Assembly: GCA_963765895.1 (NCBI GenBank)
Contig: CAVXZB010000078.1
Coordinates: 1-64,000 of the forward strand
DNA: 64,000 nt
Reading direction: 5' to 3'
Origin: an uncultured Nitrososphaeraceae archaeon
GTDB lineage: Archaea; Thermoproteota; Nitrososphaeria; Nitrososphaerales; Nitrososphaeraceae
The notes beneath the pieces are model-generated. The model searched no databases and was not told where the DNA came from. It saw only the letters and a list, made by a program, of their open reading frames with translations. The position numbers and the translations under genes are program-made. Within the stretch, counting starts at the first letter, position 1. Each line of letters begins with the position of its first letter. Below are positions 934-52,987 of this stretch, piece by piece.

Positions 934-1519
934 CTAAAATGTAACTATTTAACCCGTCTATATATTCTTGCATGTATTGTCCTTCTATATATTCAGATAA
1001 AAAATTGTCGGATTTAAATTAGACAAAATAGTTATAGTCCTCTCCAGCAATTGATGCGATTGCCGATAAACCGGGAGCCTATCAGCGCGTGCCAAATACA
1101 CGCTTCTAGCTGATATTCTATCTTATATTCTAGATTAACTGAGGTGAATTGATTATTGGGATGGAAACATGGCTAGAAAAGGCTGTACGAAATGTAAATG
1201 AAATTTCTGCTGTTATCACATTTAATGGATAGTCAAAACATATCGGACTTACCATAAAAACAGTTTAGTACTTTTTGGCTGCTATTCATCGAAAGTTAGC
1301 CTATATTCTACTAGTTCCAAATACAAATAGATCCCACTAGCAGGTTATAATATAGTTCTCTTTTTTTATTCTTATCCTTATGATATACCAAGATGCCGAT
1401 ATGATATCAATAAATTTCCTGCCTAAAATGCGAAGAATTCGATAACTAATAATCACTGTAATTTGGTTCATCTAATAAATAAGTGAATGACATTTAAATG
1501 GCTGTGCAGGTGTTAGTCC

Positions 1520-2251
1520 GTGTCCTTTCTGCCAGTCCATTTATCAGATGGCAGAGTGCTAAATATAGAGATCAAGAAGAGCAAAAGAGCAGGCCGATTT
1601 TGGTTGAAGGCCAATATATCAGAGATTTATATGGTAGCTCCTGCAGATAAATATGAAATCGATCAAGCTACACGATTTTTGGAGAGTAAAAAACCATGGA
1701 TCCTAAAGGCACTACAATTCTATGAAAAAGTACAGGCTGAATGCGGGATAGAAAAACTTCGATCTAGTACAATTTTATTTTTAGGTAAGATATACAATCT
1801 GCAGACAGTTAAAGATACGGGGTTCTCTGTAACCATCTCAACAACCCTGCGCAAAATAACAGTTCATGTAACTAATTTACGTGAATGTAAGAATGAAATT
1901 AAACAGTGGTACTGTACGGAAACTCGTAGAGTTGTGACCGAGCGTCTTGAATTTATTGCTCGAACGAACCCGAACCTACCAGCGTATAACAAGATCTCTA
2001 TAAAGGATCATACTTCTAGGTGGGCTAGCTGTTCTGAAAAAAGGAACCTGAATTTTAGTTTGCTTTTAGCTATGCTACCAATCCAACTAATAGATTACGT
2101 AATCATTCATGAACTAGCACATCTTGTTCAACTTAACCATTCGAAGAGGTTCTGGGACATTGTTATGGAGATGGATCCTGAATTTCAGTCTCATCGCAAA
2201 TTGCTGCACAAATACAACATATTGATAAAATATACACAAATAATATCTTAA
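1520..2251 (+). CDS. YgjP/DUF45 (SprT-like) metal-dependent hydrolase
   Basis: SRWASCS, IDYVIIHELAHLVQLNHSKRFW (HExxH plus NHS motif). Confidence 0.9.
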   Translation: MSFLPVHLSDGRVLNIEIKKSKRAGRFWLKANISEIYMVAPADKYEIDQATRFLESKKPWILKALQFYEKVQAECGIEKLRSSTILFLGKIYNLQTVKDTGFSVTISTTLRKITVHVTNLRECKNEIKQWYCTETRRVVTERLEFIARTNPNLPAYNKISIKDHTSRWASCSEKRNLNFSLLLAMLPIQLIDYVIIHELAHLVQLNHSKRFWDIVMEMDPEFQSHRKLLHKYNILIKYTQIIS

Positions 2252-45808: not shown

Positions 45809-46372
45809 ATGAGCAATTATGGTGGAAGAGGAAGAGAATCTTCAGATATTGCTAGGATAAAGACCGAAACTGTTACGTTTAGACTTCCTGTGCCACTTCT
45901 TAACGAGCTAAAAAAAGATGCCAAATTAGAGAAGATGAACTTAAACGCATTTGTTACGAGGATATTTGCCAATCACGTTGAGTGGGAAAGGTACGAAAGA
46001 AAAATGGGTCTGTTGCCAATGACAAAACCATTTCTCAAGGCAGTAATCAATCGATTGAACGATGAGGAAATCGTACACCTAGCAGAAAAAATAGAAAAAC
46101 AAAATTTTAAGAACATATTTACATTTATGAGGGAAAATCACGACGTTAGCGATTTTATAGAAATTCTACGGAGCTGGCTCACAGTATCGTGGATGGATCA
46201 TACTATAGTTAACAGAAATGAATCATATTATCTTAATATACAACATGACCTTGGGATTAAGTGGTCATTGTATGTCAAGACTTTGGTTTCAGAATTATAT
46301 CAAGATATCCTAGGGAAAAGAGTAGCAATTGATATTGCAGAAGGCCTGATTTCATTTATTTTTTCAAAGTAG
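45809..46372 (+). CDS. ribbon-helix-helix regulator with C-terminal effector-like domain
   Basis: TVTFRLPVPLLNELKKDA..LNAFVTRIF RHH; QHDLGIKWS motif. Confidence 0.8.
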   Translation: MSNYGGRGRESSDIARIKTETVTFRLPVPLLNELKKDAKLEKMNLNAFVTRIFANHVEWERYERKMGLLPMTKPFLKAVINRLNDEEIVHLAEKIEKQNFKNIFTFMRENHDVSDFIEILRSWLTVSWMDHTIVNRNESYYLNIQHDLGIKWSLYVKTLVSELYQDILGKRVAIDIAEGLISFIFSK

Positions 46373-47468
46373 TGATTGCATGTAGCAGATTCATATTAGT
46401 AAAAATCAGAGTCATTGCTGGCTGCACATCACCATAATGCCCATATAACTCCGCTAGCTTGGAATTTAGAATAATCCAACTTCTTGATATCTCTAAAATC
46501 CCATTAATTCAATTCTCCCATTGGATTAGATGACACAGTAAAACTGACACCTTTTTATAAATAGTTTACAGAATTTTTAATCTTTTCTCAGAAAAACGAC
46601 ATATTCATTAAAAACTGATTTATCCAGAAATATATATTTATTATTCTACTAGAATTATGTCAAACCTCATGATATAATAGATTAACCGTCATTGCCAATA
46701 AAATACCATTTTACAATTGTTATTTGTCGTCTTAATCTACTTAGATTTCATTTCAGACACTACTTTTTTCTAGGAGGGAATTACCTACAAATTCTACAAA
46801 CAAGGAGCATGACAATTTTCCGGCAGCGCTCCAAATATCATCATCTGGTGTTTTTATGAGTGGGTAGATTATCTAAATATATTTATCTAATCTTTGACCC
46901 ATATTACTATGTCTTACAAAGTAGACGTCCCTCTTAAATCATTTCACCTAGGAATATTTTTCAGATGGCATATATCATCCATGAAATCTACTGTATCTCG
47001 TTTGCTACCATTAAACCAGGATCATCTCTGATCTGGCGGAGTTATACAGTAACCCATGATTTCAAGGTCAGAATTGGAGTTGTAAAACTCGTACGGTTTG
47101 ATTATTCGACAAATGAACTCGCTCAGACATCCAGCTACATTGTGATAAGAGAGAAGATCCTGGTGCCTAAGATAATTTTCCTAGTATTTTTCAGAAAAGA
47201 TATAGGCGTTAATTTTATATATTCTTCGCGACTAAAGTATAAGAAAATCCTAATCAGAGAGGTGTAAGTGATACGTCATACACAGTTGCTAACAAAAAGC
47301 AAGAAATGGCAACAGAAGCCGCTCTTTACAGACATACAAATAGCAGAAGAATCAAATCCTCAGAAAATGGGTATTTCAACGTAAGTGAAAGTTTGTTAAT
47401 ACCAAATTTCCTGCTTTGTAAAGATTGTTTTTGGTCTGCCTCGGAGGTTTATCGGTACTAGAATTAGT

Positions 47469-47564
47469 ATGAGTTCTGCGTGTCCAGCCTGTGGTCATGA
47501 AGGGGTGATATGTATGCCTATTTGTGGAATCGGCGTGATCAAGTTAGGCGATCGGAAAAATTGA
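47469..47564 (+). CDS. CPxCG microprotein (31 aa, not in ORF track)
   Basis: MSSACPACGHEGVICMPICGIGVIKLGDRKN. Confidence 0.4.
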   Translation: MSSACPACGHEGVICMPICGIGVIKLGDRKN

Positions 47565-48184
47565 CATAATTGATTCGCTAGCTAGCCTAGTTTAATAAGT
47601 TAGGAGCCGTGTGTGTTGGAATTCAATCTTTGATACAAAGTTGCCTTATAAGATAGACATTTCTTACTATCTATCTCGGATTGGGTCTTAATTGATACAA
47701 GTATTCAAAGCTAGGTCTTAATAATTATCTCAGACTTACCTACTTAATTCCATGTTTAGCCTTACTATAATACCTAACCAGTTAGCTAGATATTGCCTCA
47801 GCGTCACAGTAGAGACTGATATAAAATTGGCGATTGTGCTAAAATAATGCATAGTCGGCTGCCCTTAAATCTGTGAATCTCCTGAATGACTATCTAATAC
47901 AAAATGCAACATTTAATCAGGTTGCACATAAGACACGAGGTAAAATTCAGATTTAACATTGTCGTTACCCAGATAGGAATTTAGATTAACGAATATTCCT
48001 GTTATATCTAAACATGACTTCGATCCTCTGACTATCTGATGAGTGTTCCTTCTAAAGAATGAGTCGCGCAACTGAAAGAAAACCAGTATAAATGATCAAG
48101 TGATATCGCGCGTAATATTACTTTGTAACACATTGAAAACTTTGAGCTTAATTAAGATTGGCGTTAAAAGATAATAGAAAGTTC

Positions 48185-48322
48185 ATGTCATCAACAACAC
48201 ACAAGAACATTTTATGCCCATATTGTCAGTCAAAATTTAAAGACAAGACCGAATTATCCAAACACATAGACAGAATACATACAGGTTTAGGGTTACTAGA
48301 AGGAGATAGACGTCAGTGTTAA
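48185..48322 (+). CDS. single C2H2 zinc-finger microprotein (45 aa, not in ORF track)
   Basis: MSSTTHKNILCPYCQSKFKDKTELSKHIDRIHTGLGLLEGDRRQC. Confidence 0.8.
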   Translation: MSSTTHKNILCPYCQSKFKDKTELSKHIDRIHTGLGLLEGDRRQC

Positions 48323-48830
48323 ATGTATCACAAGTACTATTCCACAGCTGATTAACAAAAAGATGTGATTCATTCCCCTTCTCCTAGATCTAATAATATT
48401 TTCAAATTGATTTTACTAAATCATGCATGTACTAATCAGTTAAGACATTTTATTGAAATTGAAGCGATACAATAAAAACTAAACTGCCTGCAATCCAAGT
48501 AAATATGTGCATCGCGTACACATCATTGGCGGACCAATTTGGCTAGCCATTTGAAGTTACTAGCTACAAAGTTATTAGATTTTATGTTCTGAAAGCTAGT
48601 ATCAGCATACTTATATCTTATTGACTTGTACTTCATATTCCTGTTGAGTTTTGTCGAGTAATCCAAGCGCTCGATTACAACAAATACTAAATATATTAAA
48701 TAAGATAATAATAGACAAGAAAATTTATTTTATAATAGACTTCAAATCTGGAGTTCAGTTAGACTTCTTAATTACTGAATCAGCAAGGTAGACGAATAAA
48801 TAACCATTGCGATATACATTGGACATAATC

Positions 48831-48863
48831 ATGACAATATTGTTTCCGGTAACCCATTGTCAT
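48831..48863. promoter_or_regulatory. candidate operator ATGACAAT-N17-ATTGTCAT upstream of the proteasome operon
   Basis: Perfect 8-bp inverted repeat about 60 bp before the beta ATG. Confidence 0.4.
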
Positions 48864-48924
48864 TGTCGTGACCATTCTTTTCTAAAAGTGGTCAATAATA
48901 ATAAGTATTTCTATATATTATTAG

Positions 48925-49512
48925 ATGACAACGATAGTTGGGCTCAGAACCAAGTATGGCGTTATACTTGGTTCTGACAGAAGAGCAAGTAAAGGGTTCT
49001 TTATAGGATCCAAAATAACCCAAAAAATAACACGAATGGATGATACACTAGCTGTTGCTGTTGCAGGGCAGCTGTCAGACGCAGAACACATCATCAAAGT
49101 TGCTAAAGGTGAGCGAAAATTGATAGAACTACGTAGGGGATTTCCTCTAACAGTTAAGGAATCCTCAAGGTTGATTGCCAACTTGGCATATTCTGGTCTT
49201 AAGAACTACCAACCATACTTTGTAGAGTTGATAGTCGCAGGAGTTGATAGTGAGGGCGGGCATGTCTATGTGGCCGACATGAGTGGCGCCATAACCAGTG
49301 AGGACTTCGCCGCGTCAGGCTCTGGAGCTCCAGTTGCTTATGGTGTGCTTGAAAATCTATATCAGAGTGAAATGACTAACGAGCAGGCAAAGCAGATTGC
49401 GGAAAAAGCGGTATCTGCTGCAATGGAGAGAGATCCTGGTTCAGGGAACGGAATCGATGCTTTGGTCATTCCAAATGTAATGCAGCTTCCGCAACAGGAG
49501 CATGTGAATTAG
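48925..49512 (+). CDS. psmB: 20S proteasome beta subunit without propeptide
   Basis: M-TTIVG; Thr1, Asp17, Lys33, SGSG and RDPGSG conserved; in-frame TAG directly before ATG. Confidence 0.93.
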   Translation: MTTIVGLRTKYGVILGSDRRASKGFFIGSKITQKITRMDDTLAVAVAGQLSDAEHIIKVAKGERKLIELRRGFPLTVKESSRLIANLAYSGLKNYQPYFVELIVAGVDSEGGHVYVADMSGAITSEDFAASGSGAPVAYGVLENLYQSEMTNEQAKQIAEKAVSAAMERDPGSGNGIDALVIPNVMQLPQQEHVN

Positions 49513-49514
49513 AA

Positions 49515-50201
49515 ATGTCAGAAATTGGTGGCTCAGCAGTTAGTAACAATACCAGATATCCCTACTATTATGGTCCAGAAGGACGACTGGTATTAGTAGA
49601 CAGCGCGTTAGAAGCTGTAAGCAGAGGGTCAACTACCATTGGTATAAAAACACGAGATTTTGCACTGATTTCGAGTCATATTAAACCAACTAAGGCGCTG
49701 GTCGAGCCTGCTGAAAAGATCTTTACCATAGATCAGCATATTGGTGCTACTGGTTCTGGATATATTGGCGATATACTACAATTAATAGATGAGATTAGGA
49801 TAGCAGCCCAAAGGCATCGCCTTTCTTATGAAAGCCCGATAGATATCAATTCCCTTGCAAAGTACCTTAGCTCCTACTTACATAACTATACAATCTACGC
49901 TGTAAGACCACAGGCCGCCTCTATAATAATTTCTGGATTGGATCAAACAGGTATTCAGTTGTACCAAGTTGACCCTAGCGGGACTTATTTTCGTGGATCT
50001 GGCTTTGCTATAGGTCATTACTCTGATATTGCCTTAGATGTGCTCCAACGAGAGTACAATCCCGATTTGAGTATCGATGAAGCAATCGCACTTGGCAATA
50101 AAGCAATGGAAAGAGCATTGGACGAAGGACCGCTTGTAGAAACTGGCATAGTGACTGTTAAGGACGGGGTATTCAGGAAGCTTACTAACACCCAAAGCTA
50201 A
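49515..50201 (+). CDS. psmA: 20S proteasome alpha subunit with divergent gate
   Basis: GPEGRL..EAVSRGSTTIGIK, EKIF, LYQVDPSGTY. Confidence 0.92.
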   Translation: MSEIGGSAVSNNTRYPYYYGPEGRLVLVDSALEAVSRGSTTIGIKTRDFALISSHIKPTKALVEPAEKIFTIDQHIGATGSGYIGDILQLIDEIRIAAQRHRLSYESPIDINSLAKYLSSYLHNYTIYAVRPQAASIIISGLDQTGIQLYQVDPSGTYFRGSGFAIGHYSDIALDVLQREYNPDLSIDEAIALGNKAMERALDEGPLVETGIVTVKDGVFRKLTNTQS

Positions 50202-50686
50202 ATTAGGCAAGCACTGTCCAGTCATGCTGAAAAGAACGTTCATAGAGTAGCAATGCCCTACTGTTTTTTTCGTACCTTTAAAGTAGCTTCTACTATTTGC
50301 TCAGTGATATCTAATTCCGGAGCACTCCAAAAGAGACCAGCATAACCTCGACGTTGATAAAATTTCCAGATTTGTGTTGCCCACACAAATTCGATCTAGC
50401 CTCATAACATGTTTTCTAGAAACTAAAATAGATCTATGTCGTATTGCTCGTTCAATTGTAATAGTAGACCTATTTGCTGGTTAAGGACGCCATTTACTTA
50501 ATTAGTATAAAAAACTCCGATAGCAAAGTTAAGATAAAGACGTGACTTCTTTTCTTAGGCTACACCTTCTAATGTACAGTTCGGCATGCCATTTAAGATA
50601 GCAGGTTCTTCAGAACAATATGTTTTCATGCTAGAAGACAAACGCTTACAATACTTAAAATACTCTCTAAAGCTATATATTTACAT

Positions 50687-52696: not shown

Positions 52697-52987
52697 TTAG
52701 GCGCGTGCATTAATAGTTCTCTTGCCAAAGGTGTTTTGAACTACCAACTCTCCCATTCGATTATAAACTTCCAAGTAATGCATTCCTTTGGGAGTTGTCT
52801 TGAAAGACCTTTCACCTTCAATATATTCCAAAAGATCATTTTCAATAAGAATTTTCAAATATTCTCTTAAAAGATTATACGATAAGTATGTCCTGAACTG
52901 AATTTCAGTTATCCTTATGACGTTTCCGTTAGCACATTCCAAAATTGCTCCTATTATCTCTGTCCTGGATCTATGTACAGGTTTCAT
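52697..52987 (-). CDS. winged-helix regulator (HTH_45-like)
   Basis: HRSRTEIIGAILE..LSYNLLREYL..FKTTPKG. Confidence 0.92.
   Translation of the reverse strand: MKPVHRSRTEIIGAILECANGNVIRITEIQFRTYLSYNLLREYLKILIENDLLEYIEGERSFKTTPKGMHYLEVYNRMGELVVQNTFGKRTINARA

Follow-up and report, generated by a model that had tools for sequence, protein, structure and literature searches.

The DNA analyzed here, called the window throughout, is a 64,000-nt stretch of the genome of an uncultured Nitrososphaeraceae archaeon (contig CAVXZB010000078.1, positions 1 to 64,000). It carries two adjacent genes for proteasome-type beta and alpha subunits, hereafter the pair, preceded by an inverted repeat that is a candidate operator. 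The elements of the locus, as read from the sequence, are the following:

48868-48894, + strand: candidate operator, a 27-bp inverted repeat GTGACC-N16-GGTCA (arms TGACC and GGTCA)
48895-48905, + strand: TATA-like A/T-rich box, ATAATAATAAG, abutting the operator
48922-48924, + strand: in-frame TAG stop codon immediately 5' of the beta ATG
48925-49512, + strand: beta, pair-type proteasome subunit, 195 aa, Met-Thr1 start, no propeptide
49515-50201, + strand: alpha, pair-type proteasome subunit, 228 aa, N-terminus RYPYYYGPEGRL, pocket lysine K68

The beta gene opens with the codons ATG ACA ACG (M-T-T-I-V-G), and the in-frame TAG rules out an N-terminal extension, and with it a propeptide, for this genome's beta. 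The protein belongs to the PF00227 superfamily (E 8.4e-46; 156.4 bits for a gathering score of 22.4 bits), and its nearest solved structure is the mature A. fulgidus beta chain 1j2q_H (E 4.7e-37). Active archaeal betas share Thr1, Asp/Glu17, Lys33, Gly47, Ser129, Asp166 and Ser169 (Thermoplasma numbering). Alignment to 1j2q_H shows Thr1, Asp17, Arg19, Lys33 and Gly47 in place, together with the GSG serine, the RD aspartate and the SG serine, which we take to be Ser129, Asp166 and Ser169. All eight catalytic positions are invariant in the 22 pair-type betas compared, which come from three lineages (in precursor numbering, T2, D18, K34, G48, S133, D170 and S173 are unchanged in 22/22). Thr-Thr directly follows the start codon in 18/18 loci of ammonia-oxidizing archaea (AOA), 5/5 of Caldarchaeum type and 4/4 of Methanomethylicia type, and the start codon is ATG with the exceptions of GTG in L171 and TTG in L184. 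An earlier note on this DNA had described a beta that begins M-TTIVG directly behind a TAG, has no propeptide and keeps its catalytic residues, and both the sequence and the structural alignment bear this out. The same note had called the operon atypical. In its beta that holds, as archaeal betas usually mature by autolysis of an N-terminal propeptide and the pair beta has none; the trait is nonetheless not unique, since Pyrobaculum arsenaticum beta 1 (PSB1_PYRAR), also an archaeal 20S beta without propeptide, starts M-TTTVG. Unlike the pair beta, PSB1_PYRAR belongs to the canonical beta1 clade, and its gene lies apart from its genome's alpha; its identity to the window beta is 37%.

The alpha gene begins after a gap of 2 nt (49513-49514), reads NNTRYPYYYGPEGRLVLVDSALEAV in the YDR region and carries EKI at residues 67-69; the 2-bp spacing and the retained EKI lysine are as the earlier note had stated. 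It matches PF00227 (E 1.5e-42; 145.9 bits, gathering score 22.4) and aligns with solved archaeal alphas from residue 18 onward only (best PDB matches ~1e-35 to 1e-38). The AlphaFold2 (AF2) model has a mean predicted local distance difference test score (pLDDT) of 86.8 and a helix H0 at residues 21-37, residues 1-17 being below a pLDDT of 50 and unmodelled. Both marks of an alpha-type subunit are present, the pocket lysine (K68) by alignment and helix H0 in the model. In an alignment of 21 pair-type alphas, K68, the equivalent of the activator-pocket lysine (Lys66), is invariant. A prediction of the alpha-beta complex scored 0.01 (mark 0.32), which speaks neither for nor against binding.

Where the alpha departs from its relatives is at the gate. 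The YDR motif controls gating in archaeal proteasomes; the Tyr8/Asp9/Tyr26 cluster of archaeal alphas stabilizes the open gate, and the N-terminal signature PF10584 reads YDR...FSPxGR..QxEYA. A PF10584 search gave no match in the window alpha or in P0241, a 60%-identical representative; the signature is present in this genome's canonical alpha (53.1 bits) and in P0251, a pair alpha of Methanomethylicia type. The Tyr and Asp of YDR are missing from all AOA and Caldarchaeum-type pair alphas and from P0241, and the equivalent of Tyr26 is Ser (AOA), Arg (Caldarchaeum type) or Phe (P0241). The claim that the alpha lacks YDR therefore stands for Tyr-Asp, with the Tyr26 equivalent gone as well, and fails for the Arg, which is kept as R14 in at least 90% of the aligned sequences. 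In one genus, three loci have Gln at the position of Pro17. Of the three Methanomethylicia-type alphas aligned, two still read GYDR...MYTPDGRLLQVEYA; together with the PF10584 match in P0251, this indicates that loss of the gate cluster is derived inside the pair-alpha family. Separately, in two Nitrososphaeraceae metagenome-assembled contigs (L039:2501-3327 and L040:2501-3402) the first ~27 codons of the pair alpha are duplicated, the short copy lying in another frame, 90-180 nt ahead of the full gene.

A beta that exposes its nucleophile directly behind the start Met could instead be an HslV- or Anbu-like homo-oligomeric peptidase that works without an alpha ring, the alpha-like protein having some other role. 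The N-terminus M-TTIVG does resemble those of HslV type, such enzymes need no propeptide for assembly-coupled activation, and HslV, Anbu and BPH likewise carry the catalytic Thr right after the start Met. They form homo-oligomers with no alpha partner, whereas the pair beta has a linked alpha. The best NCBIfam models for the pair are arc_protsome_B (beta) and arc_protsome_A (alpha). Against the HslV models TIGR03692 and NF003964 the beta scores 21.0 and 20.7 bits, with cut-offs of 157.75 and 137, and its nearest solved relatives are 20S betas. The alpha in turn is modelled as a well-folded 20S alpha with archaeal alphas as best PDB relatives, is strictly linked to the beta and varies mainly at third codon positions. 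The NCBIfam scores rule out kinship with HslV, and we consider the homo-oligomer explanation very improbable.

Does the pair replace the canonical proteasome or add to it? The genome (4.9 Mb in 88 contigs, 88% complete) holds five PF00227 genes: the pair and, on other contigs, one canonical alpha with YDR and PF10584, one beta1-type gene with ~20 residues ahead of TTT, and one beta2-type gene, which also has an N-terminal extension. Since a canonical alpha and two betas are present elsewhere in the genome, the pair is an extra set. The part of the earlier note's interpretation that makes the pair an additional gene set is thereby supported, these not being the only or the canonical psm genes. 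The window subunits are 35% (beta1), 28% (beta2) and 40% (alpha) identical to their canonical counterparts, and the pair-bearing genomes examined have the same composition, one canonical alpha and two canonical betas besides the pair. The window beta scores 194.6 bits with TIGR03634 (arc_protsome_B, the archaeal beta equivalog), under its curated cut-off of 224 (canonical beta1 and beta2 score 229.7 and 213.7 bits), and the alpha scores 167.7 and 177.8 bits with TIGR03633 and NF003075, under the cut-offs of 287.35 and 219. Compared with canonical archaeal PsmA/PsmB (1J2Q of A. fulgidus, 1PMA of T. acidophilum, 3H4P of M. jannaschii), the pair has the same fold, two subunit types, the catalytic residues and the alpha pocket lysine. 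It differs in falling under the equivalog cut-offs, in its beta without propeptide, in its alpha without PF10584, Tyr8/Asp9 and the Tyr26 equivalent, and in the arrangement of its genes in one operon with a regulator and an operator, the canonical genes being scattered in the same genomes.

Three further observations concern the canonical machinery. The canonical alpha of this genome (L002, G000:C19:264754-268227, ~1338-2064, minus strand) has a frameshift near codon 190: residues 1-192 of a relative's alpha match frame -1 and residues 189-242 in frame -2. This is either an assembly error or a real lesion, in which case the cell would lack an intact canonical alpha. The Thr1 column is Ala in all 25 canonical beta2 sequences sampled from Thermoproteota (for example L003:1480-2076) and position 17 is Glu in 24 of them; to judge by these residues, Thermoproteota beta2 subunits may be inactive or processed in another register. 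A profile search of the 88%-complete genome gave no match to the PAN model TIGR01242 over its cut-off (best 319.9 for a cut-off of 500) and many partial double-AAA, Cdc48-like matches.

The beta-alpha arrangement recurs well beyond this genome. Beta followed immediately by alpha was found in 18/18 AOA, 5/5 Caldarchaeum-type and 4/4 Methanomethylicia-type loci, so the arrangement is not due to chance; archaeal psmA and psmB are usually unlinked. Orthologs of the alpha occur in 24 of 201 genomes of the class sample (23 of 200 excluding the unpublished G132) at 65-72% identity and E below 1e-94, and genomes without an ortholog gave only matches of 43% identity or less. Within the order of ammonia oxidizers the distribution is patchy: the window's own genus and three more of its family, two genera of family f2, and family f5 carry the pair, and the alpha was not found in the 47 class-sample genomes of genus g9. 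With P0241 as query against 401 phylum genomes, the pair was found in 11 of 17 members of family f23, whose proteins are named Candidatus Caldarchaeum subterraneum. A Pfam search of 31 phylum genomes found an adjacent beta-alpha pair in 4/4 of family f21, whose proteins are named Methanosuratincola, Methanomethyliaceae or Verstraetearchaeota; among the genomes sampled from that class, 25 of 31 in f21 have a pair-type beta and none of 30 in other families does. Close relatives of each pair protein number more than 1000 in a metagenome protein collection, where they are named merely "proteasome alpha/beta subunit", and the named genome records with a pair alpha include Nitrososphaera, Nitrosocosmicus and Nitrosopolaris. 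In G199, the sole genome of genus g21 without a pair alpha, a 60-residue PF00227 fragment with an internal TAG (C7:50445-50624) lies beside a c1 homolog (C7:52086-52667; c1 is the linked regulator gene described below) and looks like the remnant of a lost pair.

Phylogenies were then compared with the canonical copies, after removal of near-duplicate rows and of genome G007, whose branches are long and whose composition is odd. In a careful tree, the pair betas of the AOA, Caldarchaeum-type and Methanomethylicia-type lineages form one clade (93/93) beside Thermoproteota beta1 plus beta2, and the pair alphas likewise group in a single clade (99/93), separate from the canonical Thermoproteota alphas. 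The phylogeny that the earlier note had proposed as a check thus gives pair alphas and pair betas a clade each. A quick first tree had suggested a recent duplication in AOA, since the pair betas branched in it, by a very long stem, from within AOA beta1 (Shimodaira-Hasegawa-like approximate likelihood-ratio test 96). Both the careful tree, with two lineages added, and an approximately unbiased (AU) test rule this out: grouping the AOA pair betas with AOA beta1 was rejected with a log-likelihood difference of 125.7 (p 2e-141), for a group chosen after the trees were seen. A fast-evolving lineage-specific duplicate or a transferred bacterial prcB-prcA operon would also have to explain why gene order, regulator and operator are common to three class-level lineages. 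Actinobacterial prcBA does have beta then alpha in one operon. The pair nevertheless lies far under the bacterial cut-offs (67.8 bits with TIGR03690, 20S_bact_beta, cut-off 191.9; no match of the alpha to TIGR03691 at E <= 0.001, cut-off 139.05 bits), and these scores rule out a bacterial origin. Bacterial PrcB has a long propeptide and the actinobacterial system uses Pup/Mpa; none of these traits was seen at the pair. Either form of this explanation seems to us scarcely credible. On the sequence evidence, the pair is an old paralogous alpha/beta couple of the TACK archaea (Thaumarchaeota, Aigarchaeota, Crenarchaeota and Korarchaeota), with many losses or some transfers.

A second alpha is also found in most Nitrosopumilaceae-type genomes (L107, L111, L116, L120 and L124; f2 without the pair), with the N-terminus GYDMTPTMYSPDGR. 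This GYDM... protein falls within the canonical alpha clade, where it arose by recent duplication, so we rejected it as the pair alpha's equivalent. It is absent from the two f2 genera that bear the pair.

The operator upstream of the pair is the sole match in the 64-kb window, where 0.04 were expected; of 100 shuffles, 4 contained any match. Its end lies 30 nt from the beta ATG. The consensus GTGACY-N16-RGTCA was found within 90 nt upstream of beta in 88 of 93 loci from the three class-level lineages. The 93 are those, among 108 loci, in which a script recognized a beta start preceded by 90 nt or more of sequence. The arms are 16 nt apart in 87 of the 88 and 15 nt apart in the remaining one, and the operator ends 28-52 nt ahead of the beta start in the 88. 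The five misses comprise three beyond the 90-nt limit, one with Ns and one with CGTCA as second arm. Behind the second arm, most loci have an A/T-rich hexamer (ATTAAT, ATAAAT or ATAATA). We infer from the usual archaeal TATA-to-start distance that this box is the promoter and that the mRNA is leaderless or near-leaderless.

Clustering of the open reading frames (ORFs) around the AOA loci returned a single further shared gene, c1, present in 18/18 within 6 kb. In the 5/5 Caldarchaeum-type and 4/4 Methanomethylicia-type loci, c1 lies directly upstream of beta on the same strand, which places it beside the pair in 27/27 other loci in total. In the class sample it is present in 24/24 pair-positive genomes, with a weaker homolog in 8 of 177 pair-negative ones; these genomes are relatives and not independent, and the co-occurrence does not amount to a statistical test. 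The c1 product is 185-300 aa long and combines a MarR/ArsR-like winged helix with a conserved C-terminal region (GKWF.NLRW motif; alignment A1). PF12802 was searched on three c1 proteins and gave 28.5 bits in one (cut-off 27) and less than the cut-off in two. The AF2 model (pLDDT 75.8) superposes at residues 53-137 on a MarR-family winged helix (VIA; Z 11.7, root-mean-square deviation 3.3 over 82 residues), VIA structure matches being confined to residues 49-137, and the c1 profile finds only MarR-family chains among PDB sequences, weakly (best E 0.0018; 2p4w_A E 0.78). As an observation apart, c1 proteins end in Asn in 15 of 20 cases despite very variable tails, and in one genus the end reads ...(L/Q)YN (A1).

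Copies of the operator also precede c1 itself. In this genome the 27-mer lies ~110 nt before c1 (C88:120300-120326), and elsewhere it precedes c1 in L008, L009, L010, L016 and L172, a small ORF preceding c1 in L011, L012, L014 and L017, and a c1 paralog in L231. The repeat thus stands ahead of c1's own gene in at least 6 genomes, which is the usual mark of an autoregulated transcription factor, and c1 is probably autoregulated. The repeat also recurs ahead of an HtrA-like gene encoding Trypsin_2 and PDZ domains: the 27-mer lies ~120 nt before its homologous start in this genome (L209) and before HtrA-like genes in other genomes (L007, L225 and L034). Yeast Rpn4 with its proteasome-associated control element (PACE) and Pyrococcus Phr are analogies, each a DNA-binding protein with a site before protease genes and its own gene; in sequence, the c1 profile finds just weak MarR-family matches.

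Two side observations touch these operator copies. The HtrA-like gene of this genome (L209, G000:C87:91390-94416; ORF at 1602-2588) is open from 1602 but lacks any ATG, GTG or TTG until 1908; homology places its N-terminus near a CTG at 1650. Its start could be non-canonical or damaged, or the sequence could contain an error. In two genomes of different genera, a conserved protein of ~65 aa without a Pfam match (MKFYIEF.PC.ECKD...; L211:1256-1453, minus strand, and L233:1575-1778, plus strand) lies 48 nt behind an operator copy.

Both genes of the pair appear in RNA data. In four soil or rhizosphere RNA libraries from four studies, contigs span both genes at 95-99% likeness, and two of them bridge the beta-alpha junction. 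Among the differences listed between these contigs and the window (16 more being unlisted), 12/12 in beta and 17/21 in alpha fall at third codon positions, a bias that fits purifying selection on both genes.

We think it probable that the pair forms a second, paralogous 20S-type core, old in TACK archaea, with maturation by Met removal, altered gating and a dedicated regulator. Under this model, a methionine aminopeptidase would take off the beta start Met, exposing the nucleophile without autolysis; exposure of Thr1 in Anbu by methionine aminopeptidase is a precedent (PMC5666114). The pair alpha and beta would assemble together into an alpha7-beta7-beta7-alpha7 particle, and its gate would open under rules unlike those of the canonical gate, with the Tyr8/Asp9/Tyr26 cluster unused. 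The c1 winged-helix protein would bind the operator abutting the TATA-like box and so switch the beta-alpha operon, its own gene and, in Nitrososphaeraceae, the HtrA-like protease gene, which would make the module a regulated protein-quality-control unit.

The main rival to a separate core is that the pair subunits join mixed 20S particles with the canonical alpha and betas and so tune one population. Mixed particles are known where archaea have several paralogs, as with Haloferax alpha1/alpha2; the residues at positions 1 and 17 of beta2 given above suggest that unlike betas are already combined; and pair and canonical subunits are still 35-40% identical. Yet alpha and beta are adjacent in 27/27 other loci, the same three lineage groups appear in both trees, and one promoter and operator are common to both genes. 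Adjacency, matching trees and a common promoter form the pattern expected of two proteins working together, and we regard the mixing of the two sets as unlikely.

Several observations weigh against the proposed second core and its regulation. On the phylogenetic side, beta1 and beta2 are united, with the pair betas left out, by a weakly supported node (91/57), which leaves the exact order of the beta duplications unsettled. On the transcriptional side, the RNA data are contigs, giving neither starts nor strand and allowing for DNA carry-over, and the start of one contig, at 48832, lies ahead of the proposed promoter and misfits a transcript beginning at the ATG. As for the regulator, it is from linkage that we infer binding of c1 to the operator, and a Foldseek search with the C-terminal alpha/beta domain and long helix of c1 gave no match at E <= 0.001. 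Here c1 lies apart from the pair, on contig C88 (46% identity), and tblastn for c1 in the 64-kb window gave no match. The earlier note's description of the operon as stand-alone nevertheless needs correcting, since the pair is part of a conserved module that includes a MarR-like regulator gene and a promoter operator. Genome-wide, the exact 27-mer has 7 sites here compared with 3 in the reversed control (besides the c1 and HtrA copies, one before beta, two within ORFs and two in intergenic DNA), and the relaxed palindrome TGACY-N16-RGTCA has 28 matches compared with 44, which is no enrichment. When this genome was scanned more strictly, with one mismatch allowed and both a TATA-like box and an ORF demanded, the beta site was the sole return, and no chaperone or Cdc48 gene stood behind an operator. 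A stress role for the module is suggested by the HtrA link alone.

Some of these points would equally fit a pair that is constitutive, with c1 unrelated to its control and the repeat serving as a promoter element or as the site of another factor. The unlinked c1 of this genome, the c1 homologs in 8 pair-negative genomes and the unenriched motif counts all lean that way. The counts come from one genome and are unenriched, so the case for a regulon stands on conservation across genomes: in two distant lineages c1 is directly upstream of the pair at 9/9 loci, in AOA it is no more than 6 kb away at 18/18, and the repeat precedes c1 itself even here, where c1 is unlinked. We judge it quite unlikely that c1 and the repeat have nothing to do with the pair.

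The textbook archaeal proteasome has one alpha and one or two betas, matures by propeptide removal and has a YDR gate opened by HbYX ATPases. A strongly conserved second core such as this would depart from three of the textbook rules at once: those on maturation, gate residues and gene organization. If the reading given here is true, a soil ammonia-oxidizing archaeon probably has a second, separately controlled protein-degrading machine. This opens questions about how a gate works without the Tyr8/Asp9/Tyr26 cluster, whether a propeptide is needed for ordered assembly and how archaea control proteasome genes, and a candidate regulator with a defined operator makes them testable. The pair occurs in cultivated soil ammonia oxidizers (Nitrososphaera and Nitrosocosmicus records) and in the Caldarchaeum lineage with its eukaryote-like ubiquitin system, which brings experiments and evolutionary comparison within reach. 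A broader scenario, which we offer as a doubtful speculation, is that TACK archaea ancestrally had two 20S proteasomes, the second inducible, with a gate lacking Tyr8-Asp9-Tyr26 and needing no HbYX ATPase. Soil ammonia oxidizers, Caldarchaeum relatives and Methanomethyliaceae would have retained this second one. A c1 repressor would switch it on and may double as a sensor or substrate of proteotoxic stress, in an Rpn4-like feedback loop.

What is new here is the c1-pair linkage and the operator as a conserved module. A full-text literature search, with subscription journals and supplements outside its scope, returned no description of the pair, c1 or the operator in the passages covered, which came from, among others, the Caldiarchaeum genome paper (PMC3082918) and the Anbu and Connectase surveys of proteasome homologs.

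The remaining features of the window lie around the operon:

50264-50270, + strand: T7 run, a possible archaeal oligo-T terminator, 63 nt after the alpha stop
52697-52987, - strand: HTH_45 winged-helix protein (E 2e-14)
45809-46372, + strand: weakly CopG-like protein

One metatranscriptome contig ends at 50261, near the T7 run, and another reads through it, which makes the terminator assignment weak. The two small DNA-binding genes near the pair are not related to c1. The ~2.4 kb upstream of the operon (46373-48806) is free of ORFs longer than 100 aa, of Rfam matches at E <= 0.1 and of tRNAs; in relatives, the position upstream of the operon is often occupied by c1 or by the HtrA-like gene.

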